From assembly GCA_002371155.1 (NCBI GenBank), contig DFGC01000005.1:20024-84023 (forward strand): a DNA stretch of 64,000 nucleotides. The letters run 5' to 3'. The position numbers were made by a program, and so were the translations under genes. This document shows, piece after piece, positions 1 to 46,671 of the stretch (within the stretch, counting starts at the first letter, position 1; each line of letters starts with the position of its first letter). Source of the stretch: Alphaproteobacteria bacterium UBA3760 (GTDB lineage Bacteria; Pseudomonadota; Alphaproteobacteria; Rs-D84). The notes below the pieces were generated by a model. That model worked only from the letters and a program-made list of their open reading frames with translations, had not been told where the DNA came from and did no database searches.

Positions 1-761
1 GTGCAGTTTCGGTCAATTTTGATTATTTGGCAGACAAAGACAGAAAGTTGAAAAATTTATGGGAGAGTTGTTTTTCATCAGGTGGAACAATGCGGTCTGC
101 GTTGAAAAAATGGGTTGATGATTTGCAATATGGCGATATGTTTAATGAAGATGCGGATACTTTGGATTTACAATCAAGATTGACAACTTTTGATTTTACA
201 GATATTTTACAAGACCCGGTTTTGGCACCTGCGGTGATTTCATATATTTTACACAGAATAAATAATACAACGGTGTCGGGTGGAAATCCGTCGTTGATTA
301 TGATTGATGAAACCGCGCCTATGTTGGAAAACAAAATGTTCCGTGATAATTTTATTGCGGGTTTGCAAGAAGGTCGTAAAAATCGTCAGGCATATATGGT
401 TGCGTTCCAACGCGCAAATGTATTGGATAAACTGGGGATTGGTGATGTTGTTCGTGGTCAGGCACAAACGGTTATGTTTTTCAGAAACCCCGGCGCGGAT
501 TTATCGGACTATGAACATTGGAAATTAAATCCGTTGGAAATGGCGTTTATTCAAGGCAAGGCATATCCAAATTTGAAAAGGGCGGTGTTGTTGTCGCGGC
601 CGGTGAATAATGAGTCTGTTATTTTGAATACAGAATTGGGAGGTTTGGGCAATTTATTAAAATTGTTCGAATCAGGGCGTTCGTCGGTATTATTAGCCGA
701 AGAATTATATAAATCGTATGGGAGCGCATTTGTAGAAGAATATCTGAAAAAAAATGTTTAG
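1..761 (+). CDS. virB4: VirB4/TrbE-family type IV secretion ATPase, C-terminal fragment (gene starts upstream of the window)
   Basis: The frame is open from the window start to the stop at 761. It carries an IDE (Walker B-like) segment and the conserved VirB4 C-terminal block (RKNRQAYMVAFQ...TVMFFRNPGADLSDYE...LNPLEMAFI...VLLSRPV...ILNTELGGL). Confidence 0.6.
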   Translation, partial: AVSVNFDYLADKDRKLKNLWESCFSSGGTMRSALKKWVDDLQYGDMFNEDADTLDLQSRLTTFDFTDILQDPVLAPAVISYILHRINNTTVSGGNPSLIMIDETAPMLENKMFRDNFIAGLQEGRKNRQAYMVAFQRANVLDKLGIGDVVRGQAQTVMFFRNPGADLSDYEHWKLNPLEMAFIQGKAYPNLKRAVLLSRPVNNESVILNTELGGLGNLLKLFESGRSSVLLAEELYKSYGSAFVEEYLKKNV

Positions 762-1380
762 ATTTTTTACCTTTTGGTTGGCTTGTTTTGTAATTACTGC
801 GGGCTATGCAGAAGATAAATGTGTCGCTTATAAAACAAGACCTGGGGTCCAAATAAAAAAACCCGATTGGGTGAAAAAAGTAGGGCAACCGTTGCGTATG
901 ATGGATTTATATCATGGTAATGTCATTGCAACATTGGTTGATGAATATGATATTGTTGTAAATGTCAATGAATTACCAAATAATGATGGGTTTTGTGTGG
1001 GTATCAAAGATATAAATGCAACAATCGGTTATAGTGATTTCTTGGTCAAGGTTGATATGCGACATAAATTCGGGTCGTGTTCGTATAAAACGGTTTTGGA
1101 ACATGAAGGCGAACATATAAACGCATATTTGTCGGTTATTGATGATTTCCAAGATGATTTGAAAAAATCTGTTTATACGGCGGCAAATTCTATTATACCA
1201 ATTTATGTTAAAAAAGAAGAAGATATTGATGATGCAATTGATAATTTGAATTATAAATTGCAACATCATCCAGATGTTGTTTTGGTTAAACAACAAATTT
1301 CTGCGGCCGAAGAATTGCGCAATGAAAAAATCGATGAAGATAACAGTCAGTATGAAGAATTGAAAAAGTGTAATGGTTAA
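754..1380 (+). CDS. secreted protein with HExxH zinc-metallopeptidase-like motif (HEGEHIN), DUF922-like; paralog 1
   Basis: N-terminal signal peptide and a conserved H-E-x-x-H-I-N motif shared with the next ORF. The start overlaps the virB4 stop by 8 nt. Confidence 0.5.
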   Translation: MFRFFTFWLACFVITAGYAEDKCVAYKTRPGVQIKKPDWVKKVGQPLRMMDLYHGNVIATLVDEYDIVVNVNELPNNDGFCVGIKDINATIGYSDFLVKVDMRHKFGSCSYKTVLEHEGEHINAYLSVIDDFQDDLKKSVYTAANSIIPIYVKKEEDIDDAIDNLNYKLQHHPDVVLVKQQISAAEELRNEKIDEDNSQYEELKKCNG

Positions 1381-2044
1381 AAAATTATTCTGTGTTTTGT
1401 TATGTTTCGGATTTGTTTTTCATGCGAATGCGGATGAAAATCGTTGTGCGAAATATAAAAAAATTCCACAAATAAATGTTAAACGCGCAGATTGGAAAAC
1501 AACGGTCAGTCAATCAGATGATGATTTATGGCCGCGTGCGGGTTATGTTAAAATTGAACCGTTCAGTTCTTTTTTGCCGGGGGTTTCGTATACTTTTGAT
1601 GGCAGATATTATTGTGTGTTGTTGGAATCGGTAAATGTTGAAATTGGATTTAATGATTTTAATATTTTTGTCGATAAAAAATATGAGAAAGATTCTTGTG
1701 AATATAATGCGGTGTTGAATCATGAAAATCATCATATAAATGATGCGGTTGCGGCGTTTGATGTGGTTTTCCCAAAAATTGAAATTGCATTGCGTGATAT
1801 TGTAAATAATATAGAACCTGTTTATACTCAAAATGTTGATGAAATTCCGGTGATTGTTGAAAATATGCAAAATAAAATTGTGAAAGATGAAAGTCTGAAA
1901 AAATTAGTTGATGATTTCAAAGAACAATTGCAATCTGATGCGCATGATTTAGATGATGCGCCAACCGACGAATTTAATAAATGCACAGCCGATAGAGTGA
2001 AAAAGGCTTTTGAAAAATATAACAAGAAAAAAGGTTTGTTGTGA
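1373..2044 (+). CDS. secreted HExxH-motif protein (HENHHIN), paralog 2
   Basis: Signal peptide. It shares the Cys/Trp spacing and the HExxHIN motif with the 754..1380 product. Its start overlaps the previous stop. Confidence 0.5.
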   Translation: MVKKLFCVLLCFGFVFHANADENRCAKYKKIPQINVKRADWKTTVSQSDDDLWPRAGYVKIEPFSSFLPGVSYTFDGRYYCVLLESVNVEIGFNDFNIFVDKKYEKDSCEYNAVLNHENHHINDAVAAFDVVFPKIEIALRDIVNNIEPVYTQNVDEIPVIVENMQNKIVKDESLKKLVDDFKEQLQSDAHDLDDAPTDEFNKCTADRVKKAFEKYNKKKGLL

Positions 2045-2391
2045 AAGATAAAATTGTAAAATTTGTAAAACAAGAATATGGGGCGAAACCTGAATATTTA
2101 TGGAAAAAATATCCGACATTTTGTGTGTTTCGGCATGTGGATAATAACAAATGGTTTGCGTTGGTTGCAACATTGCCGCGTAAAATATTGGGTGTATCTG
2201 GGGACGGCATGGTTGATTTTATAAATGTTAAATGCGATAAAGAAACTATCGATTTTTTTCATGGTGTAAATGGTATTTTGCCGGCATATCATATGAATAA
2301 ACAAAACTGGATAACGGTTTTATTGGACGGCACCGTGCCAGAAAAAAATGTAAAAAAACTGATTAGTATGTCGTTCGATTTAACAAAATAA
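2041..2391 (+). CDS. YjbR/MmcQ-family small protein
   Basis: 116 aa with the typical KWFALV...VKCD...LLDG pattern. It overlaps the preceding stop by 4 nt, so it is in the same operon as virB4 and the HExxH genes. Confidence 0.5.
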   Translation: MKDKIVKFVKQEYGAKPEYLWKKYPTFCVFRHVDNNKWFALVATLPRKILGVSGDGMVDFINVKCDKETIDFFHGVNGILPAYHMNKQNWITVLLDGTVPEKNVKKLISMSFDLTK

Positions 2392-2563
2392 AACCCGCCC
2401 AAAATGATGGGGGATTTTTAATATTTTTTTGATTTTGTGGGATAGGGCGGGAAGAAATGTAAAAATAATAAAGAGCAAGATTGAGGACAGGGGATGGAAT
2501 TCGCTCGTCTGGAACCATGGCAACAATGGCGGGGGATGGGTTTCGCGAAAATATGGCACAAGT

Positions 2564-2665
2564 CCGCCTTCGCTGATAAGCATAAATTTTTTTGCAAGAT
2601 TACGGACAATGCTACGGCGGGACACTGAATTTTCTAAAAAAAATACCGCGCAAGCGGTATTTTTA
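2564..2665 (+). ncRNA. candidate small RNA / repeat family R2, copy 1 (CCGCCTTCGC...ACGGACAATGCTACGGCG...TTTCTAAA + hairpin + U-run)
   Basis: About 100-nt non-coding stretch ending in the palindromic hairpin ATACCGCGCAAGCGGTAT plus a T-run. A second copy with the same conserved blocks lies at 48909..48994. Confidence 0.3.
2643..2665. terminator. bidirectional rho-independent terminator (perfect palindrome ATACCGCGCAAGCGGTAT flanked by T-runs on both strands)
   Basis: 18-nt perfect palindrome with TTTTT on the plus strand and TTTTTTT on the minus strand immediately 3' of tRNA-fMet. Confidence 0.5.
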
Positions 2666-2674
2666 GAAAATTCG

Positions 2675-2751
<77 letters not shown>

Positions 2752-2848
2752 ATGATAGGCTATATTATATACTAAATTATATTCCTGTCAATTAAAAATC
2801 ATTTTTTACCGGTGTTTTTTGCATTTTTTGTGTTTTTTCTTTGTTCCC

Positions 2849-5996: not shown

Positions 5997-7286
5997 TTGT
6001 CAGACAAGGTTAGTGGTTCTTTTGCGGCGGCGGGTCGGACCGATGTGTTGCGCGTGAACAAGAAAAAGTTCGCGGTGGGTTTGTTTTGGCAACCGGTCGC
6101 GGTCGGATATACTCCGCGGAACTATGCCAAGATATTGGCGAAAAATTCCAAGACAGATGCAAATTTGTTTGTTGAATATCGGTCGATGGTTGGCTTGGCC
6201 GCCAAGGCGCGTGGTGGATTTTCGGGAATGCCATCGGCGGCGGCGGAAATTGTTGATGCGTTGAGTGAATATTCATCTTTCTTGGCGGTGTTTTTAATCG
6301 ATAAAAAATATTATTTGTTGGCGGTGCGTAATGGTGTCATTTTGGCGGATAAATTATTTGATTCTGATTCAGATGCCCGCGCAGAATATGCAAAATATGC
6401 AAAAATTCCTGATTGGTCGGCGTTTATTGCACCAAATTCGTGGGGAATACCGCGTGCAATTGAAAAACATCTGAATTTATTGTTGCCGCGTAAAACAAGA
6501 TATCATTTGCGCCCAATCAGTCGGTGGCCGTCCAGAATTTTGTCTGTTATTTTGTTGGTTGGTTTTTTTGCGCTGGTTTATTTTATTTTTCGTGAACCAA
6601 TCGATAAAATGCGTGAACATAAACCTGTGCAATTAGACCCAGAATTGGTCGCGGAATATAAACGCCAGGTCGAAGAAAAAAATAAAGAATTGGATGCGCA
6701 ATTCGAAATAAAAAAAGAAGAAGTTAAACCGTTGGTTATGCCGTATTCTGAATTGCCGGTGCCAATGGCGCGCGCCAAACAATGTTATCAGGCAATTGGA
6801 TTTTTAATGCAACCGATAACCGGATGGGTGCAAACAAATGTTTCGTGTGATGAAACAACCGCCACAGCCGAATTTACCAGAAAATATGGTTCGTTGGATG
6901 CGTTCTATGTTATGGCGGAAAAATTTCTGCCGGGGGTAAATGTTGATGAATTAAACGAAGATACTTTGCGTGTGAATGTTGCGTTGCCTGAAATTCCACG
7001 CGCCGCGTCCCAAGATGAAAATGATGCGTTGACGGTTGAAAGAAATGTTATCAGTCTGTTTCAATCGATTGATACAGACGCAAAAACAAATGTTGTTGTT
7101 GATACATTGTCAAACGGTGTTGATACGGCAAATTTGAATATTGTCGAAATCGAGGTTTCTTCTAAATTGTTGCCAATGCAATTTATAAAAATCTTTGACG
7201 ATTTTGGTGGTGTTTATATGACGCGTTGTTTGTGGAACGCGGTATCAAGGACTTGGAACTATGAGGTTATAATCTATGCAAAATAA
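5997..7286 (+). CDS. type IVb pilus biogenesis protein, R64 PilO-like (bitopic, central TM)
   Basis: 429 aa with one central TM (ILSVILLVGFFALVYFIF). It is the first gene of a four-gene module whose order and sizes match R64 pilO-pilP-pilQ-pilR. TTG start with a strong RBS. Confidence 0.45.
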   Translation: MSDKVSGSFAAAGRTDVLRVNKKKFAVGLFWQPVAVGYTPRNYAKILAKNSKTDANLFVEYRSMVGLAAKARGGFSGMPSAAAEIVDALSEYSSFLAVFLIDKKYYLLAVRNGVILADKLFDSDSDARAEYAKYAKIPDWSAFIAPNSWGIPRAIEKHLNLLLPRKTRYHLRPISRWPSRILSVILLVGFFALVYFIFREPIDKMREHKPVQLDPELVAEYKRQVEEKNKELDAQFEIKKEEVKPLVMPYSELPVPMARAKQCYQAIGFLMQPITGWVQTNVSCDETTATAEFTRKYGSLDAFYVMAEKFLPGVNVDELNEDTLRVNVALPEIPRAASQDENDALTVERNVISLFQSIDTDAKTNVVVDTLSNGVDTANLNIVEIEVSSKLLPMQFIKIFDDFGGVYMTRCLWNAVSRTWNYEVIIYAK

Positions 7287-8031
7287 AATTAAATTTTTTG
7301 GTTTGTTGTTGGTGATGTTTTCGTGTGTCGTATCGCATAATTCATATGCGGATGATGATTTGGTTGAAGAAACCATTGAATATGGTGATGTGGATTATAA
7401 TAATAAAACAGGATTGGAATATGCGTCTGATGCGATTGTCCAAGATATTATCGGCGCAACATCGGTTGCCGATTATGATGTCAATGGAACTGTGTTTCAA
7501 CAAATTACTGATTTGGAACAAGAAAAAGTTTTAATGCAATTGGAAAAAGAACGCGCACAATTGGATTTGGATTTGGACAGATTGGCGGCGGAAAAAATTA
7601 AATTGCAAATGGAAATGGATACACTGTCGGGACGCGCCGACCAAGAACGGCAAATTTTGCAAAATGAAAAATCAAAATTGGAAGCCGAGGCCGCCAGAAT
7701 CGAACAAGAAAAACGCGCGTTGAGTGCCGCCACAGAATCAACCGAGTATTCAAATGTTGAAACGCAAACACAACCGAAAAAATCTGCGCCGAAAAAGGTT
7801 GCCAGAAATGTCGAAGGCGATGATATTGCGTCATTATATAAATTGGTCAATGTTATGGGTGCGGGAAATCAATTACAGGCAACTTTGTCTGATTTGGAAA
7901 CAGGTCAAACCAAACGCGTCAGTGTTGGTAAAAAAATAGATGGATTTACCGTTAAATCAATTTCTTTGGAAGATGGTGTCGTGTTTAGTAAAGATGGCGA
8001 AACGCAAAATTTGAATATATCCAGTCGGTAA
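7276..8031 (+). CDS. type IVb pilus PilP-like periplasmic protein (signal peptide, coiled coil, C-terminal beta domain)
   Basis: Signal peptide, an extended coiled coil and a C-terminal GxxK..V..G..I.G block. It overlaps the upstream gene by 11 nt. Confidence 0.4.
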   Translation: MQNKIKFFGLLLVMFSCVVSHNSYADDDLVEETIEYGDVDYNNKTGLEYASDAIVQDIIGATSVADYDVNGTVFQQITDLEQEKVLMQLEKERAQLDLDLDRLAAEKIKLQMEMDTLSGRADQERQILQNEKSKLEAEAARIEQEKRALSAATESTEYSNVETQTQPKKSAPKKVARNVEGDDIASLYKLVNVMGAGNQLQATLSDLETGQTKRVSVGKKIDGFTVKSISLEDGVVFSKDGETQNLNISSR

Positions 8032-8035
8032 AAAA

Positions 8036-9661
8036 ATGAGTAAGAATAAAATTGATGATGATTTGTCAAAAAAAACATCTGTGCCGGATGGTATGGATGG
8101 TGCCGAGGCAAAAGAAATCGTCGATTATTTGTTTTCTAATGGAAACCGGTTGCTGACCGCGACGGGTGCGCGGATGGAATTGTCCAAAGATGTCCAAAGT
8201 TTAATTGCGTATTTTTCAGGTGGTGAAATTATTATTTCCAGAACACATAAATATGATGGGCGCGTGTTGGCTTTTTTGGATTTATTGCGTGAAAGAAATA
8301 TGCCAAAACGGATTCCGTTTTATTCTGATTTAGGATTGATTTCGGCAATATACAAAACATATGAAGACCGGTTGGGTAATGTTGTTCGTGCGCGCACCGA
8401 TTATGATAATCAGATGCAGAAAGATTTTGTTGATATTATCGCGCGGGCGGCCGCACAAAAGGTGTCTGATGTGCATATCGAGGTCGCAGACCAAACAACA
8501 ATTTATTTCCGTATAGATGGCAGTATGCAACCTGTGTTGGAATATAATTCGGCATGGGGTGAATCGTTTGTTCGTGCCGCGTTTGCGTCTGCGGATATTT
8601 CAAATTCGAATTATGCACAAAATGAATACCAATCGGCACAGAAAGACGGACGAACACCGTTGCGTGGAACCAAAGATTTATATCTGCCAAATGGTGTGAC
8701 CAGTATTCGTATGCAATTTAATCCGATTGCGTTTGGGTCGCGTTATGTCGTTATGCGATTGTTGTATGATAACCCGTCCGAAGGTATTAAAACAGAACAG
8801 GAATTTGGTGAATATGAACAAAATTTGTTGATGCGTTTGCGTGCGTATCCAACGGGTTTGGTGATTGTTGCGGGTCCGACATCGTCAGGTAAATCTACGA
8901 CTTTGGTGCGAAATATGGCGTTGATGTTAAAAGAACGTAATTATGAAATAAATATGATAACGGTGGAAAATCCGGTTGAACAAAAAATTTTTGGCGCGCA
9001 TCAGATGCCGGTTGTGAACGCTATGAACGAAGAACAACGCGATGAAAAATATACCGAGGCTTTGGCGGCGGCATTACGCAGCGACCCCGATACATTGATG
9101 GTTGGTGAAATACGAACTTTGGCGGCGGCACAGTTGACGGTGCGTGGTGCGTTGTCGGGGCATAATGTTTGGACAACATTGCATGCGAATTCTGCGATGG
9201 CGGCATTGACCCGTTTGTTGGATATGGGTGTTGAAAGTTTCAAGTTGAAAGATGAAACACTGATGCGCGGATTGGTGTCTATGCGGTTATTCAAAAAATT
9301 ATGTCCGCATTGTCGTGAACCGTTGGTAAATCATCCAGAACACCCGGCGTATCGGCGTGTCAAAGATGCGTTCGGTATGGTTGGTGTAAAGCAGACTTTT
9401 GTTCGTGGTCCCGGGTGCAGCGAGTGCAAAGGTTCGGGAACATTTGGACGAATCAAGGCGGGCGAAATCATTATTACAAACAGTGAATTTTTACGATTGG
9501 CATTGGCGGGGAATACTGATTTGGCCATGAAATATTGGTTGGAAGAAATGGACGGACGTACATTGAAAGAGGCCGCCGCGGAATTGATGTTAAAGGGTAT
9601 TATTGGTGTCGATGAATTAGAACGGTGGGTCGGATTATTGGATAGACCTGGGGAATATTAA
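8036..9661 (+). CDS. type IV pilus / type II secretion family assembly ATPase (GspE/PilB; R64 PilQ-like)
   Basis: Walker A GPTSSGKSTT, Asp box, His box and a C-terminal tetracysteine motif CPHC...C..C typical of GspE-family ATPases. Confidence 0.8.
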   Translation: MSKNKIDDDLSKKTSVPDGMDGAEAKEIVDYLFSNGNRLLTATGARMELSKDVQSLIAYFSGGEIIISRTHKYDGRVLAFLDLLRERNMPKRIPFYSDLGLISAIYKTYEDRLGNVVRARTDYDNQMQKDFVDIIARAAAQKVSDVHIEVADQTTIYFRIDGSMQPVLEYNSAWGESFVRAAFASADISNSNYAQNEYQSAQKDGRTPLRGTKDLYLPNGVTSIRMQFNPIAFGSRYVVMRLLYDNPSEGIKTEQEFGEYEQNLLMRLRAYPTGLVIVAGPTSSGKSTTLVRNMALMLKERNYEINMITVENPVEQKIFGAHQMPVVNAMNEEQRDEKYTEALAAALRSDPDTLMVGEIRTLAAAQLTVRGALSGHNVWTTLHANSAMAALTRLLDMGVESFKLKDETLMRGLVSMRLFKKLCPHCREPLVNHPEHPAYRRVKDAFGMVGVKQTFVRGPGCSECKGSGTFGRIKAGEIIITNSEFLRLALAGNTDLAMKYWLEEMDGRTLKEAAAELMLKGIIGVDELERWVGLLDRPGEY

Positions 9662-9663
9662 AA

Positions 9664-10734
9664 ATGGAAGAGTTAGAATTATTTTATGCAAAAATGGTGT
9701 TCAAATTTAATACAGAACGCCGGTTGGCTTTGATTCGCAAATTGGCATCATTGTTGCGGAATAATTTTTCTTTGATGGATGCGTTGGTCAGAATTGAAAA
9801 AATCGAATCTGATAATGGGCGAAAACCGGATGAACCGTATGCAATCGCAATGCGGATGTGGCAAAAAAATCTGGAAATGGGTATGAGTTTTTCTGATGCG
9901 ACGCGTGGTTGGTTGCCGGCGGAAGAAACATTATTGGTGACAAGTGGTAATGTTGCAGATTTGGTTGTTGCGCTGGAAAATGTCGATAAAGTTGTAAATG
10001 GAACAACCAAAATAAAGCGCGCAATGAGAAGCGCAATTGCGTACCCATTGTTTTTGTTGATTTTGACATTTGGTATTATTGTTATGGTTGGAATGTATTT
10101 GGTGCCACCGTTGGCGGATGTGGCGGGGCCAAATGTTGTGTGGCATGGCGCAGCAAATTTGTTGATAATGGTATCTGAATTTTCAATAAAATATTGGTCT
10201 GTGATTTTGGTTGCGTTTGTTTTGTTATGTGTTTTGGTGTGGTTCAGTTTGTCAAATTGGACTGGATGGTTGCGGGCAAAATTTGATAAATTGCCACCGT
10301 GGAATATATATAAAATGCATACATCGGTTGGGTGGTTGATGTCTTTGGCGGCTTTTGTTGCGGCGGGGGTGTCTATGCCGGATGCAATGCGTATTTTGGC
10401 GGATAATGCAAACAAATATTTGCGTGATATTTTAGACGAAACATTACGGTATATTGCAAATGGTGATAATTTAGGTGTCGCGTTGTCGAATACAGGTCGC
10501 GATTTCCCAAATCAAGAAATTATTGGCGATTTAACTATTTATTCTGAAATGAATGATTTTGATGCAAATATCGAAAGATTGGCAGATGATTATTTGCAAA
10601 ATTCTGTGCGAAAAATGGAATCGATATCCAGCACATTGAACAGTTTTGGAATTTTATTGGTATCGGCAATTATCGCATGGGTTGTGTTGGCAACTTTCCA
10701 AATGCAAGACCAAATTACAATGATGTTATCATAA
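9664..10734 (+). CDS. GspF/PilC-family inner-membrane platform protein (R64 PilR-like)
   Basis: 356 aa polytopic membrane protein with the GspF-type three-TM architecture and two cytoplasmic domains. It starts 3 nt after the ATPase gene. Confidence 0.7.
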   Translation: MEELELFYAKMVFKFNTERRLALIRKLASLLRNNFSLMDALVRIEKIESDNGRKPDEPYAIAMRMWQKNLEMGMSFSDATRGWLPAEETLLVTSGNVADLVVALENVDKVVNGTTKIKRAMRSAIAYPLFLLILTFGIIVMVGMYLVPPLADVAGPNVVWHGAANLLIMVSEFSIKYWSVILVAFVLLCVLVWFSLSNWTGWLRAKFDKLPPWNIYKMHTSVGWLMSLAAFVAAGVSMPDAMRILADNANKYLRDILDETLRYIANGDNLGVALSNTGRDFPNQEIIGDLTIYSEMNDFDANIERLADDYLQNSVRKMESISSTLNSFGILLVSAIIAWVVLATFQMQDQITMMLS

Positions 10735-16008: not shown

Positions 16009-17019
16009 ATGAATAAAGAATTTAATTTTTTGGTATATAACACTCCAAACCAAGATGTTAAAATAAATGCTATGGTACGGGATGACACAATCTGGCTTAC
16101 CCAAAAATCTATGGCTGAATTGTTCGGAGTTCAGATTCCCGCTATTAGCAAACACCTTAAGAATATATTTGAAGAAGGTGAATTAGATGAAAAAGTGGTT
16201 GTTTCCAAAATGGAAATAACCACTCAACATGGAGCAATATCCGATAAAACTCAAACATCAGAAACCCAATTTTATAATTTAGATGCTATTATATCTGTTG
16301 GATACAGGGTTAATTCTGTTAAAGCCACTAATTTCAGAATATGGGCAACCAAAGTTTTACACGAATATATTCAAAAGGGGTTTGTTCTGGATGACGAGAG
16401 ATTAAAACAAGGCAAACAAGCCTTTGGCAAAGATTATTTTCGTGAATTATTAGAACGTGTCCGTTCTATTCGTGCATCTGAACGCAGAATATATCAACAA
16501 ATCACAGATATATTTGCAGAATGCTGCATTGATTACGATAAGAATTCAGATATTACTAATAATTTCTATGCAACTGTTCAAAACAAATTCCATTATGCAA
16601 TTACTGGTCAAACTGCTGCTGAAATAATATATACAAAAGCGGACAGAACGAAAGACAATATGGGATTAACCACATGGAAACATTCACCAGATGGACGGAT
16701 TTTGAAATCAGATGTAGGGATTGCTAAAAACTATCTTTCTGAAAAAGAAATCAAACAGTTGGAACGAACTGTATCTGGATATTTTGATTATATTGAAGAT
16801 TTAATTGAACGAGAAAACACATTTACAATGGCCGAATTTGCAAACAGTGTAAACGAATTCTTGGCTTTCAGAAAATACGATGTACTGCCAGATAATAATC
16901 ATGGTCGTATATCAAATGCAAAGGCTATTAAACATGCAGAATCAGAATACGCTGCATTTAATAAAACCCAAAAAATAGAATCTGATTTTGATAAACAGGT
17001 TAAAAAAATGTTAAAATAA
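16009..17019 (+). CDS. RhuM-family virulence-associated protein
   Basis: Characteristic N-terminus NAMVRDDTIWLTQKSMAELFGVQIPAISKHLKNIFEEGEL and a conserved central region. Its codon usage is atypical for this window (CTT, AGC, GGA) and its local GC is lower. Confidence 0.6.
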   Translation: MNKEFNFLVYNTPNQDVKINAMVRDDTIWLTQKSMAELFGVQIPAISKHLKNIFEEGELDEKVVVSKMEITTQHGAISDKTQTSETQFYNLDAIISVGYRVNSVKATNFRIWATKVLHEYIQKGFVLDDERLKQGKQAFGKDYFRELLERVRSIRASERRIYQQITDIFAECCIDYDKNSDITNNFYATVQNKFHYAITGQTAAEIIYTKADRTKDNMGLTTWKHSPDGRILKSDVGIAKNYLSEKEIKQLERTVSGYFDYIEDLIERENTFTMAEFANSVNEFLAFRKYDVLPDNNHGRISNAKAIKHAESEYAAFNKTQKIESDFDKQVKKMLK

Positions 17020-17219: not shown

Positions 17220-17293
17220 CGAAAGCAGATGGTGCCCTAAGCAAGAATCGGACTTGCGACTCGTCCTTACCAAGGACGTGTTTTACCACTAGA
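17220..17293 (-). tRNA. tRNA-Thr(GGU)-like gene with aberrant T-loop (TCCGATT) and imperfect D-stem; possibly a pseudogene or element-borne tRNA
   Basis: The reverse complement is GCCCTAATAGTCTAGTGGTAAAACACGTCCTTGGTAAGGACGAGTCGCAAGTCCGATTCTTGCTTAGGGCACCA. It has perfect 7-bp acceptor, 5-bp anticodon and 5-bp T stems, anticodon GGU, U33 and an encoded CCA. Position 55 is C, and one D-stem pair is mismatched. Confidence 0.45.
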
Positions 17294-17398
17294 CTATTAG
17301 GGCAACAGCGGTATTATACCTGTTCGCGGATAAAAATCAACATAAAAACCATTTTTTACTAGATTTTTATTTTTTTACCATTATAATGCGTTTTGTTT

Positions 17399-17475
17399 GG
17401 CGGGATAGCTCAGCTGGTTAGAGCAGTGGAATCATAATCCACGTGTCGGGGGTCCGAGTCCCTCTCCCGCTACCA
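17399..17475 (+). tRNA. tRNA-Met (anticodon CAU; elongator Met or Ile-lysidine type)
   Basis: GGCGGGATAGCTCAGCTGGTTAGAGCAGTGGAATCATAATCCACGTGTCGGGGGTCCGAGTCCCTCTCCCGCTACCA folds as a canonical cloverleaf with an encoded CCA. Confidence 0.8.
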
Positions 17476-17573: not shown

Positions 17574-17601
17574 TTGACAATTTAATTTTTTGGTGTATAT
17601 T
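17574..17601 (+). promoter_or_regulatory. near-consensus sigma70 promoter (TTGACA-16-TATATT)
   Basis: Perfect -35 hexamer and a strong -10 element, 35 nt upstream of the GGAGG RBS and the ATG at 17635. Confidence 0.45.
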
Positions 17602-17634
17602 ATGCTCATAATAAAACATTTATGGAGGCAAAAT

Positions 17635-19389
17635 ATGTTATTAGTGAACATGGATAATGTACCACGTAGAGAGTTGAATAAATTGCAAATTTCGGAAATT
17701 TTGCATGGTATTATGCGTATGGAAAAATCATCAAATCCGGATAAATATGCCCGTTGTATGCCGGAATATAGTCGTTTTGTGTCACGGTATGCTTTTGCTG
17801 TAAATGGTGGTAAAATTAAAATTTCTGATAAAAACATTGTTGCAACGGTGAATTTTTTGGAAAAAATGTCAGGGAGTATTCCGTGTGAAGTTGAGTGTGT
17901 TGATAGTGCTGTATCTAAATTAAAGATACAATATGCCAATGCAATTATAAGCGGGCGTGTAAATGTACCAAAAAAAGATTTAAAATATGTAATTGATGGT
18001 TTTGAATCAGAATTAAGACGTAATAATGATGATAATAATGTTATAACATCTGCGCTGGAAAAAATCAGACCGTTATATCAAGAAATGTGTCAAGAAGATA
18101 AAGATGAATTTGTCCAAAATCCATCCAAAGTGTTTTTCGAAAAACAAAAAGAGCGTAGCGAGAAAAAAGAACAGTTGAAAAATTTAGGATTGAAGGAACG
18201 CATAAAAAAGAAAGTGGCGGGTGTGGCCCAATCGTGCGAGCAAAAAATTGCAGAAAAAATTGAACAATATAAAAATGTAGCACAACAAAAAGCACAAGAA
18301 CGTAAAGAAAAAGTTGCAGCAAAAAGGGAAAAACGCGAAGCAAAAACAGGTGTTTTAAAACCGTTGTTTGCTCGTGCCATGCCATATGCAGCAAGCGTTT
18401 TGTTGTTGGTGGGAATAACATTTGGTTTTTCGCAAGATTCAACGCATGCAGGTGAAACAGATGCATCGAATAAAGACAATAAAACAAAAGTTGCAAAACA
18501 AAACACCAAAAATAATGAAGAAAAAACATATATGGTATCTGAACAAGATTTGGCGCGTGCGAATGGTAATTTTGCTGTGCAACAATCTGAACCAGTTGTT
18601 AAAGATACGGTTGTCAAACACGACCAGAAAATTGCACCAAAACCGGTTGTTAAAAATAATGCAAATGTTAAATCGTCTGACAAATTTTATGATTCCAGAT
18701 TGGATAAATTCTTTGGAGATAAAAAATCTGATGTTTTGCAAAAAATACAAAATCGTATGCAAAATGTTGATTTGGGTGGTATCAGTGCAGAACGCGTTGC
18801 ATACACCATGGGGGTTTATTCGGCATATGGATATAATATCGATGTGTTGAATAATTTCGTAAATGGTGCGGAATTAAATTCAGACCAAATCAAAGAATTA
18901 AAATCTGTCATAGATTTGGCAAAACCACATGGAACCGGTGTTCGTGATTTGGCGGCGGCGCATATAACATCGCGTGAAATTCATGAAATGTGCGCATGTG
19001 GCGATAAATCAAGTGCCGAAAAAAAGATTGCGCAAGCAAAATCAAATGTTAAATCATCAAACGACAGTATTACAAAATCTGATGTGTTGAAAATGGTCAA
19101 CGATAATATCAAATGTGGTAAATCTGTGCTGAATCCAGATGATTCGGCAACATTGACTAAATTGTTGTTGCAAAATAATTTGGGGCCAGATGATTGTGCA
19201 AATATGACCAAATTGTTGTTATTGGCGGGTGTTGATAAAAATATTGTAAATCAAATCGTGCGTCAAAATAATTATTCGAATACTGTTTTAATGCCTGATA
19301 ATTATGTGCAGCGGCTTGAAAAACAAAGTGGTCAGAAAAAGCCAGTGTGGTATTCACGCTGTTTCAGAATATCACGGTATTCACGATAA
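17635..19389 (+). CDS. orphan lysine-rich coiled-coil protein with single central TM helix (hypothetical, possible secreted/effector-like)
   Basis: 584 aa. K/E-rich N-terminal half, the TM segment ASVLLLVGITFGF and a C-terminal half with no recognisable motif. It has a consensus promoter and RBS and is AT-rich. Confidence 0.5.
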   Translation: MLLVNMDNVPRRELNKLQISEILHGIMRMEKSSNPDKYARCMPEYSRFVSRYAFAVNGGKIKISDKNIVATVNFLEKMSGSIPCEVECVDSAVSKLKIQYANAIISGRVNVPKKDLKYVIDGFESELRRNNDDNNVITSALEKIRPLYQEMCQEDKDEFVQNPSKVFFEKQKERSEKKEQLKNLGLKERIKKKVAGVAQSCEQKIAEKIEQYKNVAQQKAQERKEKVAAKREKREAKTGVLKPLFARAMPYAASVLLLVGITFGFSQDSTHAGETDASNKDNKTKVAKQNTKNNEEKTYMVSEQDLARANGNFAVQQSEPVVKDTVVKHDQKIAPKPVVKNNANVKSSDKFYDSRLDKFFGDKKSDVLQKIQNRMQNVDLGGISAERVAYTMGVYSAYGYNIDVLNNFVNGAELNSDQIKELKSVIDLAKPHGTGVRDLAAAHITSREIHEMCACGDKSSAEKKIAQAKSNVKSSNDSITKSDVLKMVNDNIKCGKSVLNPDDSATLTKLLLQNNLGPDDCANMTKLLLLAGVDKNIVNQIVRQNNYSNTVLMPDNYVQRLEKQSGQKKPVWYSRCFRISRYSR

Positions 19390-26837: not shown

Positions 26838-28610
26838 TTATTTCCTTAATAAACTTTGCACCGCCAATGGAAAATCGTTCGATTTTGCCAGGTATGAACC
26901 ACTGATTAAAAAATCTGCGCCGGCATTCCAACATTTTTGTGCGGTTTCTGGATTTATTCCGCCGTCCACAGATATTATGTATTTTAATCCATGTTTTTTT
27001 CGTGTTGTTGATAATGCCAATATTTTCTGTAATACAGATGTGTTAAATTCTTGGCCTGATGCGCCGGGGGCAACCCCCATAACCATAACTTCATCAACAT
27101 CACGCAAAATCGGAACAAGTTGTGTTATTGGGGTGTCTGGGTTTATTGCGACACCCGCGCGACGGCCCGTTGCACGAATCCCGCGTAATGCCGCACGAAC
27201 CCCAGTCGTGTTTAATGATAAAATAATTGTGTTCGCCCCAGCCTTTATCGCGTTTGCCGCCCAGACCGATGGGTTTTCGGTCATTAAATGAACATGTAAA
27301 TGAAAGTTTGTGTTTGCGCGGATTTCTTTTAATTCGGCAATACCGCCGGCAACATGCGGAACATAAAATCCGTCCATTATATCAACATGTATTGTTGATA
27401 TGCCGGCGGATGCAAATAATTTATATGTCATTGGTGATAACATATTAAAGCATAATGTTGATGGTGCGATTGGTATAAATTTTGGCTTTTGTTTTTTAGG
27501 TTTTCGCACAAATATTTTCGTGATTTTATTTATGAATTTTTCGTGGCGTGCCATGCGTGCCATATATGCGTCGCGCGCAGGTTTTTCCGAATCCCATATA
27601 TAATTAGAAATTGCTGTTATGGTTGCGTCGGCATGATGATTTTCAATCGGTAATCCAAATGCGTTTCCGACAAAGTCAACCACACCTTGGATTTGGGTGC
27701 CGCCGCCACTGATTATTATTTTGGTTGGTTGATATTTTGCAACATGTGGTTCGGCAGATTTTTTGATTTCTCCGATAATATCAACAATGCGTGGAACAAC
27801 AACATCGTTCACATCGCCGCGTGTGAAATCATATGCGGTATCGGCGGGGGTCATGCGGTCCATTGCGCGTGGAATTAAATTTGCAACCATGCGTTTTATG
27901 CGTTCGGCTTCGTCAAAATCGATATTTAATGATTTTGTTAAATCGTTTGTTGCGTTGGACATGCCCATAGGAATTTTTTCGTGCCAACATACACCGGAAT
28001 CGTTCCAAATTGAACATCCGGAAAATTCTGCGCCCATGTCGATAAACATTACGGTTTCGCCCGCGCGACGCAAAGTCATATTTTGCAAATATGCCGGGTC
28101 AAAAACACCGTCATATTGAATATGTGTTTTTCGCAATATGGATATAATTTCGTTTATGCGGTCGGTTTCATAACAAATGATTCCAAAAGTTGATATCAAT
28201 TGATGGTCGGTGTATCCCACCGGGGTTTGGATTTTTCGTGCAGATGCCGTATCGTATTGAAATGGCATTATGTGAATTGGTGTAAATCCCGACGGAAATG
28301 TCAATTTAGAAATCTGGGCACGAATATCACCATCGGTGATTTTATGCTCGCCGTTCCAAACGGTGTTTTGTTGTTGGTGCATAAATACAGATTTCCCAAA
28401 ATTCCCGGTTATGTATGCCGATTCAAAATGTGTGTTTAATTCATGCTCTAAATTATCAATTACTGATTTTATGGCAAATTGTTGGTTAAAACTGTCGCAC
28501 ATGGCGGTTGCGGATTTTACGATTTTTCCAGAAATCACACGATGCGCAATTCCGCGAACACATGATGTTCCGATGTCCAGACATAAAAAGCATGAATCAA
28601 GCAAGTTCAT
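26838..28610 (-). CDS. FtsA (actin-like cell-division ATPase) fused in-frame to ribulose-phosphate 3-epimerase (Rpe)
   Basis: The N-terminal 370 aa or so carry the FtsA motifs (LDIGTS phosphate-1, FIDMGAEFS phosphate-2, IISGGGTQIQG adenosine) and end in an amphipathic KFINKITKIFVRK helix. The same frame, without a stop or start codon, continues into an Rpe domain (IAPSTL..., HVDIMDGFYVPH, HLHVHLM, GADFLISGS). Confidence 0.6.
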   Translation of the reverse strand: MNLLDSCFLCLDIGTSCVRGIAHRVISGKIVKSATAMCDSFNQQFAIKSVIDNLEHELNTHFESAYITGNFGKSVFMHQQQNTVWNGEHKITDGDIRAQISKLTFPSGFTPIHIMPFQYDTASARKIQTPVGYTDHQLISTFGIICYETDRINEIISILRKTHIQYDGVFDPAYLQNMTLRRAGETVMFIDMGAEFSGCSIWNDSGVCWHEKIPMGMSNATNDLTKSLNIDFDEAERIKRMVANLIPRAMDRMTPADTAYDFTRGDVNDVVVPRIVDIIGEIKKSAEPHVAKYQPTKIIISGGGTQIQGVVDFVGNAFGLPIENHHADATITAISNYIWDSEKPARDAYMARMARHEKFINKITKIFVRKPKKQKPKFIPIAPSTLCFNMLSPMTYKLFASAGISTIHVDIMDGFYVPHVAGGIAELKEIRANTNFHLHVHLMTENPSVWAANAIKAGANTIILSLNTTGVRAALRGIRATGRRAGVAINPDTPITQLVPILRDVDEVMVMGVAPGASGQEFNTSVLQKILALSTTRKKHGLKYIISVDGGINPETAQKCWNAGADFLISGSYLAKSNDFPLAVQSLLRK

Positions 28611-43482: not shown

Positions 43483-45063
43483 ATGAATATGAATAATATG
43501 TTGGAAATGGCTGTTCGGCAATGGCCCGAAAATCTGTTTCTGGTGCGCGAAGGTGTTTCGTATTCTGAATTTATGGATATGGTGCGCGCGCGCGCGGTGA
43601 CATTGATGGACAACGGGATTAAACCCGGGGATACGGTCGGTGTGTTATCACATAATATTCCACAATTTCCATTGACGCTGTTTGCGATATGGTATGTTGG
43701 TGCGAAATGTTTGATGCTGGATACGAATTTAACACCGTTTGAATATGATAATATGGCGGATGCCGCCGGATGCAAATTTGTGTGCGCGGAATCGTCGTTT
43801 TTCTATAAAACGGATAAATTCAAATTTATCGATATTACCGCCAAAGATGGTCCGGTAAATCCGATGCTGCATCCATATAATTTCCAAGACAACGATGTTG
43901 CAACATTGTCTTTTACATCTGGGTCAACAGGCGTGCCCAAAATTGTGCCATTGACACACTATAATTTAATAGAGTGTGCAAATTCGTTGGAAGATATGGC
44001 GGAATATTTTGGTTCGGGTGATATTATGTATGGATTTTTACCACTGTATCATATATTCGGTTTTGCCATTGGAATTTTGGCGACGGTGCATTTTGGCGCG
44101 GGTATCGTGTTGCAACCAACAATAAATCCGAAATACATTTTGGACGATTTCAAAAAGTTCCGTCCGCATGTGATTCCGGCTGTGCCACGGTTATGGGAAA
44201 TGTTCAGAAATAAAATTATGGACAATCTGAAAACGCAAAAAAAATGGAGTATCGTCGATTTTATTTTGCGTAATCGTGTTCGTATAAATGATATGGGGCT
44301 GGGATTTTTTGTTCGTAAAGTCCAAGAACCAATTTTGGATATTTTCGGTGGTCGTGTGCGTTTGTTGATTGCCGGTGGTGCCGCCACCAAGCCCGAGGTT
44401 GAAACATTTTACGAAAACCTGGGGTTGGCATTTATCCAAGGTTATGGTTTGACGGAAACGGTTGGTCCAATTTGTATATCAAAGCCAAATAAAAAACGTA
44501 TGGCGTTTTCTGTGGGGGCGCCAACAACAAATAACGAGTGTGAAATTCGTGATAAAGACGAAAATGGCATTGGGGTTTTGTGGCTGCGTGGACACCAGGT
44601 TTTTGGCGGATATATGAATAATGACGCGGTGAATAAAGAGGTGTTCGATGAACGCGGGTTCTTTAATACCGGGGATTTGGTGTATATGGACAAAAATGGC
44701 GAATTGCACTTTGCGGGGCGTAAAAAACAGGTCATCGTTCTGGATAGTGGTAAAAATGTTTATCCAGATGAATTAGAGGCTATGTTTTTGGATATCCCGG
44801 GTGTTAAAAATGTCGCGGTGTTTGAACATCGGGTCAAAGACAAAACGGTTGCATACGGCGTGTTTTCGGTCGATAAGGATATGACAATGGAAAAATTGGT
44901 TGCCGAGGTTAGTGCGGCAAATAAAAAGGTTGCATCGTATAAATGGGTGACCCATTTTGCAATGACAACTGATGATTTGCCGATGACATCAACCCAGAAA
45001 ATAAAACATCATGTTGTTCGTCAAAATTTAATTGATGGTAAATATCCAATTAGACATGAATAA
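43483..45063 (+). CDS. adenylate-forming enzyme (acyl-CoA/acyl-ACP synthetase-like, ANL superfamily), paralog 1
   Basis: Motifs TSGSTGVPK, GYGLTETVG, TGDLVYMDKNGELHFAGRKK. 526 aa. Confidence 0.65.
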   Translation: MNMNNMLEMAVRQWPENLFLVREGVSYSEFMDMVRARAVTLMDNGIKPGDTVGVLSHNIPQFPLTLFAIWYVGAKCLMLDTNLTPFEYDNMADAAGCKFVCAESSFFYKTDKFKFIDITAKDGPVNPMLHPYNFQDNDVATLSFTSGSTGVPKIVPLTHYNLIECANSLEDMAEYFGSGDIMYGFLPLYHIFGFAIGILATVHFGAGIVLQPTINPKYILDDFKKFRPHVIPAVPRLWEMFRNKIMDNLKTQKKWSIVDFILRNRVRINDMGLGFFVRKVQEPILDIFGGRVRLLIAGGAATKPEVETFYENLGLAFIQGYGLTETVGPICISKPNKKRMAFSVGAPTTNNECEIRDKDENGIGVLWLRGHQVFGGYMNNDAVNKEVFDERGFFNTGDLVYMDKNGELHFAGRKKQVIVLDSGKNVYPDELEAMFLDIPGVKNVAVFEHRVKDKTVAYGVFSVDKDMTMEKLVAEVSAANKKVASYKWVTHFAMTTDDLPMTSTQKIKHHVVRQNLIDGKYPIRHE

Positions 45064-45088
45064 ATGGTTTTTATAAAGGAATATAAAA

Positions 45089-46669
45089 ATGAATATGTAT
45101 GAATTGTTGGAAAAAAATATAAAAAGAAATCCGAAAACGGTTTTCTTGGTGCGTGAAAATATTACTTTTGAAGAATTACCAAAATATGTGCGTGCGCGCG
45201 CAACTACATTGGCCAAGGCGGGTATAAAACCCGGTGATACGGTTGGGTTGTTGTCGCATAATTTGCCTGAATTTGTGTTCAGTTTGTTCGCAATTTGGTA
45301 TTTGGGTGCGCGTGTTTTGTTGTTGGATACAAATTTGACTTCGGTTGAATATGATAATATGACGGAATTGACCGATTGTAAATTTGTTGTTGCGGAAAAG
45401 TCTTTCTTTTACAAAACAAAAAATTTCAAATTTATCGATATCCAGGCCCCAGATACCGAAACAGATGAATCGTTGAAACCGTATAAAATCAAAGATTCTG
45501 ATATTGCGACATTGTCGTTCACATCGGGTTCGACGGGAACACCAAAAATTGTGCCGTTGACACATAAAAATTTGGTTTCTTGTTCGGAAAGTTTGGAAAG
45601 TTTGAATATATTTTTGCGCCCGGGTGAAATGCTGTATGCGTTTTTGCCGCTGTATCATGTGTTTGGGTTTGCCGTTGGATTTTTGGCACCATTGCATTTT
45701 GGTATGGGTATGTTGTTGCAATCAACAATCAATCCAAATGCAATTTTGCAAGATTTTGCAAAATATAAACCACATGTTATTCCGGCGGTGCCGAAATTGT
45801 GGGAAATTTTCCGCAAGAAAATCATCGATGGTGTGCGCGAAAAGAAAAAATGGTGGTTGGTGTCTTTCATTATGAATCATCAAAAAACTTTGCGTGCAAT
45901 CGGTTTGGGCAAATTGGTTGATAAAGTATTGAATCAAATTCGTGCGGTGTTTGGTGGTCGCGCCCGTTGTTTGGTCGCAGGTGGTGCCGCAACCAAGCCC
46001 GAGGTTGAAAAATTCTATACTCAATTAGGGATGGATTTTGTCCAAGGTTATGGTATGACCGAAACGGTTGGACCAATCTGTTGTTCGAAACCGGTTAAAA
46101 AACGCGTTCCGTTTGCGTTTGGTGCGCCGTTGGGTGATTGCTGTTGCGAAATTCGTAATGCTGATGAAAATGGTATCGGTATGTTATGGGTCAAAGGCAA
46201 CCAGGTGTTCGGTGGGTATCTGAATAATGACGCGGCGAATAAAGAATGCTTTGATAAAAACGGATTCTTTTGCACGGGGGATTTGGTGTCGATAGACAAA
46301 AATGGTGAATATCATTTTGCTGGTCGTAAAAAACAAGTCATTGTTTTGGATTCGGGTAAAAATGTCTATCCTGATGAATTAGAAGGATTATTCATCGAAA
46401 TCCCGGGTGTTAAAAATGTCGCCGTGTTCGAGCACGAGGTCAAAGGCAAAACTGTATCATATGGTGTGTTTTCGGTTGAACCGGATATGACCATGGAACG
46501 GTTGTCTGCGGAAATTGCCCAGAAAAATAAAAAGGTTGCGTCATATAAATGGGTGACCCATTTTGCGATGACGACTGATGATTTGCCGGTGACATCCACA
46601 CAAAAGGTTAAACATCATGTTGTGCGTAAATATTTAATGGATGGTAAATATCAAGAAAAGGATATTTAA
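45089..46669 (+). CDS. adenylate-forming enzyme, paralog 2
   Basis: The same motif set (TSGSTGTPK, GYGMTETVG, TGDLVSIDKNGEYHFAGRKK). It lies 25 nt after paralog 1. Confidence 0.65.
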   Translation: MNMYELLEKNIKRNPKTVFLVRENITFEELPKYVRARATTLAKAGIKPGDTVGLLSHNLPEFVFSLFAIWYLGARVLLLDTNLTSVEYDNMTELTDCKFVVAEKSFFYKTKNFKFIDIQAPDTETDESLKPYKIKDSDIATLSFTSGSTGTPKIVPLTHKNLVSCSESLESLNIFLRPGEMLYAFLPLYHVFGFAVGFLAPLHFGMGMLLQSTINPNAILQDFAKYKPHVIPAVPKLWEIFRKKIIDGVREKKKWWLVSFIMNHQKTLRAIGLGKLVDKVLNQIRAVFGGRARCLVAGGAATKPEVEKFYTQLGMDFVQGYGMTETVGPICCSKPVKKRVPFAFGAPLGDCCCEIRNADENGIGMLWVKGNQVFGGYLNNDAANKECFDKNGFFCTGDLVSIDKNGEYHFAGRKKQVIVLDSGKNVYPDELEGLFIEIPGVKNVAVFEHEVKGKTVSYGVFSVEPDMTMERLSAEIAQKNKKVASYKWVTHFAMTTDDLPVTSTQKVKHHVVRKYLMDGKYQEKDI

Positions 46670-46671
46670 TC

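Follow-up and report, generated by a model that had tools for sequence, protein, structure and literature searches.

A family of putative exported HExxH metalloproteins encoded directly behind virB3-virB4 in the uncultured alphaproteobacterial order Rs-D84

In canonical operons for type IV secretion systems (T4SSs), virB5 sits directly after virB4. Its product, a member of the VirB5/TraC/TrbJ family (PF07996), acts as a minor pilus or stalk-tip subunit and is a protein of around 220 residues with a signal peptide and a helical C-terminal half; an HExxH motif and a set of four cysteines are not VirB5 features. In the Rickettsiales vir homolog (rvh) system, virB4 is followed by virB6 paralogs. 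The locus considered here lies at the start of a 64,000-nucleotide stretch of DNA (the window) from Alphaproteobacteria bacterium UBA3760, of the order Rs-D84 (contig DFGC01000005.1, positions 20,024 to 84,023). Like rvh, it belongs to an alphaproteobacterium with a reduced genome and has its chromosomal virB3-virB4 pair embedded in housekeeping genes; unlike rvh, its virB4 is followed by a gene for an HExxH protein. This gene behind virB4, and its product, are referred to as X, and the window harbors two tandem copies of it, termed paralogs A and B.

In zincins, an invariant HExxH motif is found on a helix that is preceded by a beta sheet, and this is also the predicted arrangement in X. Aspzincins utilize an aspartate as the third ligand, located around 10 residues after the motif, whereas the candidate in X, the invariant D194 on a later helix (a predicted placement), lies 65-75 residues past the motif in most of 278 full-length family members. 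A further comparison is provided by DUF922 (PF06037), an uncharacterized family of predicted secreted Zn-dependent proteases, whose zincin-like character was predicted on the strength of a weak FFAS score (PMC3650047). DUF922 resembles X in that it encompasses small exported bacterial proteins in which beta strands precede an HExxH helix, but no member of the X family reaches its 27-bit gathering score, and DUF922 itself has no experimental function. Small secreted putative HExxH hydrolases are already a known kind of protein; what is new is that X invariably occupies the virB5 slot of an apparently scattered T4SS throughout an entire uncultured lineage, and has been repeatedly duplicated there. 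Our literature search found no paper pairing Rs-D84 with type IV secretion and no HExxH protein described as encoded beside virB4, the only related mention being the HExxH effector domains of the killing T4SSs of Xanthomonadales, whose architecture is unrelated. We tentatively prefer the reading that X is an exported metal-dependent hydrolase that is co-expressed with VirB3 and VirB4 and has a plausible T4SS role.

The window opens inside virB4, and the four open reading frames (ORFs) that an earlier note had described at this end, together with their overlaps, are all present in the ORF map and the raw sequence. The virB4 fragment shares 8 nucleotides with A (ATGTTTAG), A shares 8 nucleotides with B (ATGGTTAA), and B shares 4 nucleotides (GTGA) with a yjbR gene. 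A and B are true paralogs, 27% identical across 197 residues (BLASTP, E=2e-22), and the motif reads HEGEHIN in A and HENHHIN in B, in both cases spanning residues 117-123. Their hydrophobic N-termini end GYA/ED or ANA/DE and, on a direct reading of the sequence, are probably Sec signal peptides; taken with four invariant cysteines, these N-termini suggest that both proteins are exported. The description of two secreted tandem HExxH paralogs has therefore held up, the motif being kept family-wide, although the extended signature H-E-x-x-H-I-N has not, since its I is mostly V in distant members and its N is unconserved. A lipoprotein was also considered and rejected, as the LAC in the signal peptide of A is unconserved in homologues. 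A scan for terminators and promoters inside the cluster found nothing exceeding background.

The virB4 fragment matches TIGR00929 (E=1.4e-35) over profile positions 570-787 of 792, the C-terminal ATPase part, and includes a Walker B-like IMIDE segment. The DNA upstream of the window start was read in a 94%-identical relative, L004. Its full-length VirB4 orthologue of 807 residues carries the Pfam domain CagE_TrbE_VirB (PF03135) and matches TIGR00929 with E=1.1e-111 and 374.5 bits, under the NCBIfam cutoff of 643.1 bits, so that the Enterousia protein, which is 71-85% identical within the lineage, is a divergent member of the VirB4 family. These matches bear out the proposal of a VirB4/TrbE-like T4SS ATPase upstream of A. 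The gene order in L004 is ftsW-topA-dnaG-ychF(-)-SufBD-like gene-44-residue minus-strand ORF-virB3 (96 residues)-virB4 (807 residues)-A-B, in which the 44-residue ORF looks like an L36-type ribosomal protein gene. In a second relative, L005, a 99-residue gene preceding virB4 matches Pfam VirB3 (PF05101).

The search for the remaining virB/trb genes, which had been advised, thus yielded virB3 directly upstream in relatives and no other virB gene within the 64-kb window or its 10-kb flanks. No virB2 was found upstream of virB3-virB4, and neither virB5 nor virB6 was found downstream at this locus. The remainder of the window is occupied by housekeeping genes, including gyrB, aspS, uvrB, lpxK, lpxC, and others. 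Because virB2 is not found upstream and the 64 kb hold no further virB gene, the T4SS genes appear to be scattered on the chromosome, as in Rickettsiales. A plasmid or mobile-element origin was rejected, as A has no match in a plasmid collection and housekeeping genes lie on both flanks.

A scan with one genome per species gave 184 confirmed relatives, of which the best 80 were analyzed as genome loci. All of these 80 are gut or rumen metagenome-assembled genomes (MAGs) labelled Candidatus Enterousia, uncultured Alphaproteobacteria, or "Rickettsiales", and near-exact and exact copies of A are found on metagenomic contigs. Two loci with an Enterousia-type virB4-X arrangement bear other titles, "Bacteroides fragilis" (L033, CAVGNU010000002.1) and "Cyanobacteria bacterium UBA3803" (L012, DFEL01000144.1), which are probably binning or labelling errors in public MAGs. 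Enterousia belongs to the uncultured order Rs-D84; its members, with genomes of around 0.75-1.0 Mb, are missing the bulk of biosynthetic pathways and are believed to rely on other cells, and secretion goes unmentioned in the same study (PMC12306168).

VirB3, VirB4, A, B, and YjbR were searched by tblastn against the 80 genome loci, and 80 further loci from metagenomes were examined. Upstream of X, virB3-virB4 is found in all 79 genome loci that have upstream DNA, and virB4 adjoins X in all 67 such metagenome loci, so that all 146 related loci with upstream DNA show virB3-virB4-X. X starts 3 nucleotides past the virB4 stop in 32 of the genome loci and 4 nucleotides past it in 12, and in a further 14 the spacing is -8 nucleotides. 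The gap does not exceed 14 nucleotides in 68 of 79 genome loci; the larger gaps probably result from X starts being called at ATG only. A is the orthologue found in every related genome examined, with 50-80% identity across species. Of the 79 genome loci, 17 carry a second copy of X, which stems from one of two separate lineages: the downstream, B-type copy occurs only in the clade of the window itself (L010-L021), and an upstream extra copy, around 26% identical to B, occurs in L040, L055, L074, and L080. The HExxH motif and the cysteines are kept in both. B is the faster-evolving copy, retaining the motif, the aspartate, and the four cysteines, and a word-index search with it returned only 8 proteins, 47-54% identical except for one near-copy at 92%. 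Metagenome scanning with an outlying short-form family member, P0165, found nothing, and a second scan recovered only Enterousia-type loci. The conserved unit is virB3-virB4-X(-X'), where X' is the second copy, and the proposed T4SS link is confirmed as a linkage of genes. The retention of X in genomes of 0.75-1.0 Mb, its constant operonic position, and the frequent coupling argue for its co-expression with virB3-virB4.

The stretch between X and DUF374-lpxK-lpxC forms a variable slot that has been repeatedly rearranged, with glycosyltransferase and lipopolysaccharide genes found there in relatives. In the window this slot holds yjbR alone, which is probably co-transcribed with A and B. The earlier note was correct in assigning the gene to the YjbR/MmcQ family (70.5 bits against PF04237, gathering cutoff 30.1, residues 13-114) and in its 4-nucleotide overlap with B, but its membership in a four-gene functional unit was rejected on the grounds of synteny. 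YjbR lies within 6 kb of X in 3 of the 80 genome loci and in as many of the 80 metagenome loci (only 6 of 160), and in L004 an epimerase gene sits between B and yjbR; for these reasons YjbR is a passenger in the variable slot and should not be read as part of the virB3-virB4-X unit.

The family to which X belongs is broad. When 1.84 billion cluster representatives were searched with a profile built from 29 close homologues, more than 1,200 clusters at 50% identity were recovered (1,210 representatives at E<=1e-3, 298 at E<=1e-10), nearly all of the matches being 200-250 residues long. In an alignment of 96 diverse members, with a mean column identity of 19%, the sole invariant columns are C23, G55, C81, C109, H117, E118, H121, D194, and C206, and the identical set is recovered from 56 members without the Enterousia clade. 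The HExxH motif is present in 278 of 278 full-length members, a conservation far beyond chance; the alternative that homologues would lack the motif is not what is found. Among Pfam families, DUF922 is by far the commonest match below threshold (14 of the 96 members, best E=0.0023), and the match in P0181, at 17.4 bits against the cutoff of 27, extends over 51 profile positions that surround and follow the motif. A and B themselves do not match DUF922 at E<=1. A few other HExxH families, namely eCIS_core, M56, and Tox-MPTase2, come next among the sub-threshold matches. Scattered sub-threshold matches to Ferritin_2 and Ald_deCOase brought a di-iron or ferritin-like site into consideration, which was rejected as there is only one ExxH and one invariant carboxylate. 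As the motif and aspartate are invariant in an exported and probably disulfide-bonded protein, X is, on balance and by a small degree, probably a hydrolase that depends on a metal, in the manner of DUF922 or of zincins.

An AlphaFold2 model of A, built from a 29-sequence alignment, has a predicted local distance difference test score (pLDDT) of 90 and a predicted template modelling score (pTM) of 0.80. The signal-peptide helix is followed by strands 31-35, 40-44, 56-73, and 80-99, then by helix 109-131, which carries the motif, by helix 133-146, a short strand, and helices 155-170, 173-195, and 198-204, with D194 near the end of helix 173-195. The N-terminal half is hence beta-rich and the C-terminal half helical. 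The model of a distant member, P0175 (pLDDT 85.5), follows the same plan but has an additional helix after strand 2 and ahead of strand 3, as well as two helices of great length at 143-180 and 189-220. The invariant aspartate is D223 in this protein and falls just past the second of these. Because the two long helices form a hairpin, the aspartate should, from the topology of the P0175 model, return close to the turn of the HExxH motif. Judged from the models, the fold is not recognizably that of a solved zincin, of VirB5/TraC, or of VirB8, and a remote zincin relationship of the family is possible.

Several results weigh against reading X as a metal-dependent hydrolase with a T4SS role. Neither A nor B has a Pfam or NCBIfam match at E<=1 apart from noise, no Pfam model reached its cutoff for any of the 96 members scanned singly, and NCBIfam has no model for the broad family. 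Neither structural model has a significant Foldseek match, be it in BFVD or in the PDB (best E 0.36 and 0.65), and querying PDB sequences with profiles brought up nothing beyond coiled-coil and apolipoprotein noise; X therefore has no significant sequence or Foldseek match to a solved zincin. In classical zincins the first x of the motif is usually hydrophobic, whereas in the 278 members it is mostly D, N, or G. Of the earlier metallopeptidase proposal, the conserved HExxH motif stands, and it lies on a helix of the model, but the DUF922 search and the fold comparison suggested alongside it gave, respectively, similarity at family level only below threshold and no match to a zincin fold. On the side of the T4SS, one locus (L040) is a clear exception to the adjacency, a 345-residue gene being inserted between virB4 and two copies of X. 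The wider neighborhood, ftsW-topA-dnaG-ychF through DUF374-lpxK-lpxC, is syntenic between L004 and L005, and the conserved virB4-X adjacency could therefore reflect genome stasis. Finally, at the loci examined outside Rs-D84, no T4SS gene adjoins a family member.

The last three points favor the main rival explanation, in which X is a general periplasmic housekeeping protein, either an enzyme or a metal binder, that has no T4SS role and is held beside virB4 by frozen gene order; the broad family, after all, also occurs in other Alphaproteobacteria among unrelated genes. This we regard as somewhat unlikely, given that operonic spacing (3, 4, or -8 nucleotides) is maintained in nearly every genome despite the rearranged slot downstream of X, and that in 146 loci X has never been displaced from the virB4 side of that slot. 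A T4SS-related role of X is plausible, but the link depends on synteny, and these genomes tend to conserve their gene order in general.

The members outside Rs-D84 show a range of settings. In L090 the family gene overlaps by 4 nucleotides the stop of a 728-residue Guanylate_cyc (adenylate/guanylate-cyclase) gene, and in L092 and L096 members that are 25-30% identical to each other are divergent to an adjoining 260-residue Exo_endo_phos (PF03372) gene; these neighbors may be clues to the ancestral role of the family. One further member is found among housekeeping genes and another among hypothetical genes on a non-mobilizable Microvirga megaplasmid. As the outside loci that were examined have no adjacent T4SS gene, the T4SS association is specific to Rs-D84.

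The position of X makes a comparison with VirB5 unavoidable, for the two share a gene directly after virB4, a signal peptide, a similar size, and a helical C-terminal half. Position and size do not by themselves establish homology. X differs from VirB5 in its beta-rich N-terminal half, its HExxH motif, and its four cysteines; A and B have no match to PF07996 at E<=1, nor is PF07996 among the 25 families most often matched by the 96 members. With no significant Foldseek match to a PDB chain and with four beta strands before the helices in the model, VirB5 homology was rejected, in agreement with the earlier view that the paralogs occupy the virB5 position without being VirB5, and no VirB5/TrbJ-like helical fold was seen. 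A looser form of the idea is that X is a structural, surface-exposed T4SS component, which either takes the place of VirB5 at the tip of the pilus or stalk without being homologous to it or serves as an adhesin, with the HExxH-Asp residues forming a structural metal site. Besides the virB5 position, the signal peptide, and the VirB5-like length (around 200-225 residues), this idea is favored by at least two tandem duplications (the downstream B lineage and the upstream lineage of L040, L055, L074, and L080) whose extra copies diverge fast. These resemble the amplified surface components known in Bartonella Trw and Rickettsiales T4SSs, and the long strands and long helices of the models would also fit. 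We nonetheless consider it improbable. To the missing VirB5 and PDB matches and the beta-rich half can be added that the family exists with identical invariant residues at loci and in genomes without adjacent T4SS genes, and that an invariant Glu beside the first His typifies catalysis rather than a purely structural site.

Pertussis toxin, which is released by Ptl, provides a model for export by Sec followed by a T4SS, and X could by analogy be a secreted effector or toxin that reaches the periplasm through Sec, folds there with disulfide formation, and is released by the T4SS to attack host or partner cells as a metalloprotease. The signal peptide, the four conserved cysteines, the encoding beside T4SS genes, and the diversification of paralogs are compatible with such a role, as is a lineage thought to depend on partner cells (PMC12306168). 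It is, however, very improbable: no evidence points to export through the T4SS, free-living-type Alphaproteobacteria commonly carry family members at loci that lack T4SS genes, and the 50-80% identity of A across species represents a fair degree of conservation that is atypical of effectors.

The preferred reading, in which X is an exported hydrolase tied to the T4SS, brings together export, disulfides, metal binding, catalysis, and the functional tie, all of which we infer. A and B would be Sec-exported, disulfide-stabilized periplasmic or surface proteins of an unnamed family that resembles DUF922, each with a mononuclear metal site and most likely acting as a zinc-dependent hydrolase. H117 and H121 would be provided by one helix, E118 would act as the catalytic base, and D194 is the candidate third ligand. 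In Rs-D84/Ca. Enterousia, X would be co-transcribed and translationally coupled with virB3-virB4, and because of this coupling, production of the T4SS inner-membrane core would always be accompanied by production of the enzyme. Its most likely task would then be that of an accessory periplasmic enzyme, which could cut a cell-wall peptide or process a T4SS or pilus subunit during assembly. The family is large; no curated model recognizes it above threshold and Foldseek finds it no counterpart in the PDB, and in this respect it is new. A stronger version, in which X represents a structurally unprecedented exported HExxH-Asp metalloprotein family that was recruited as an integral T4SS component, replacing VirB1-type wall remodelling or subunit processing or substituting for VirB5, and was then amplified, is in our view unlikely.

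The coordinates of the features are collected in Table 1, which includes several observations from the remainder of the window. A type IVb-pilus-like cluster lies around 5 kb downstream of virB3-virB4-X and is conserved in L004 and L005. It encompasses genes for PAP_PilO (429 residues, PF06864, E=2e-12), a 251-residue unknown, a T2SSE ATPase (541 residues), and a T2SSF protein (356 residues); pili are unreported for Rs-D84 in PMC12306168. A tRNA-Met gene on the minus strand is directly preceded by a perfect sigma-70 consensus (TTGACA, 16 nucleotides, TATAAT), which lies in the gap that follows yjbR. A gene for a RhuM-family "virulence protein" (PF13310, E=5e-103) is adjoined by tRNA-Thr and tRNA-Met genes, and together with a nearby 599-residue ORF without a family may form a small integrated element. 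Next to ftsQ, a 590-residue ORF combines a match to FtsA (189-326) with one to ribulose-phosphate 3-epimerase (396-574), which would mean either that two genes have fused or that a stop codon has been lost. Three tandem AMP-binding paralogs of 526, 526, and 524 residues (PF00501, E 5e-66 to 2e-60) are striking for a genome of around 1 Mb.

Table 1. Coordinates of the locus, of related loci, and of other features in the window.
Feature	Sequence	Coordinates	Strand	Remarks
VirB4-family T4SS ATPase gene, 3' end (252 codons)	window	3..761	+	stop TAG 759-761; gene enters from window edge
Paralog A, 208 residues, predicted signal peptide and exported HExxH protein	window	754..1380	+	ORF map, family alignments
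Paralog B, 223 residues, tandem HExxH copy with added basic C-terminal tail	window	1373..2044	+	ORF map, BLASTP to A
YjbR/MmcQ-family gene, 116 residues	window	2041..2391	+	GTG start overlapping B stop; PF04237
Variable slot	window	2041-2811		yjbR alone
Variable slot	L004	11283-13286		epimerase gene, yjbR, 153-residue unknown
Variable slot	L005	10695-16356		UDP-galactopyranose mutase and three glycosyltransferases
Insertion	L040	4273-5310		345-residue gene between virB4 and X
Family member with Guanylate_cyc gene	L090	5818-8711		
Family member with Exo_endo_phos gene	L092	7180-8681		
Family member with Exo_endo_phos gene	L096	613-2199		
tRNA-Met gene	window	2675-2751	-	
Sigma-70 consensus	window	2764-2791	-	
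Type IVb-pilus-like cluster	window	5997-10734	+	
RhuM-family gene	window	16009-17019	+	
Stretch noted with the RhuM region	window	17230-17475		
599-residue ORF	window	17590-19389		
FtsA/epimerase ORF	window	26838-28610	-	
AMP-binding paralogs	window	43483-48246	+	

We know of no Gram-negative T4SS with an accessory protein of this type. If X does work with VirB3 and VirB4, it would represent a new sort of T4SS accessory protein, small, exported, and bearing HExxH, that fills the virB5 slot of an uncultured gut lineage with a lifestyle believed to depend on other cells. Whatever its tie to the T4SS, the family is a good target for curation, structure determination, and biochemistry.

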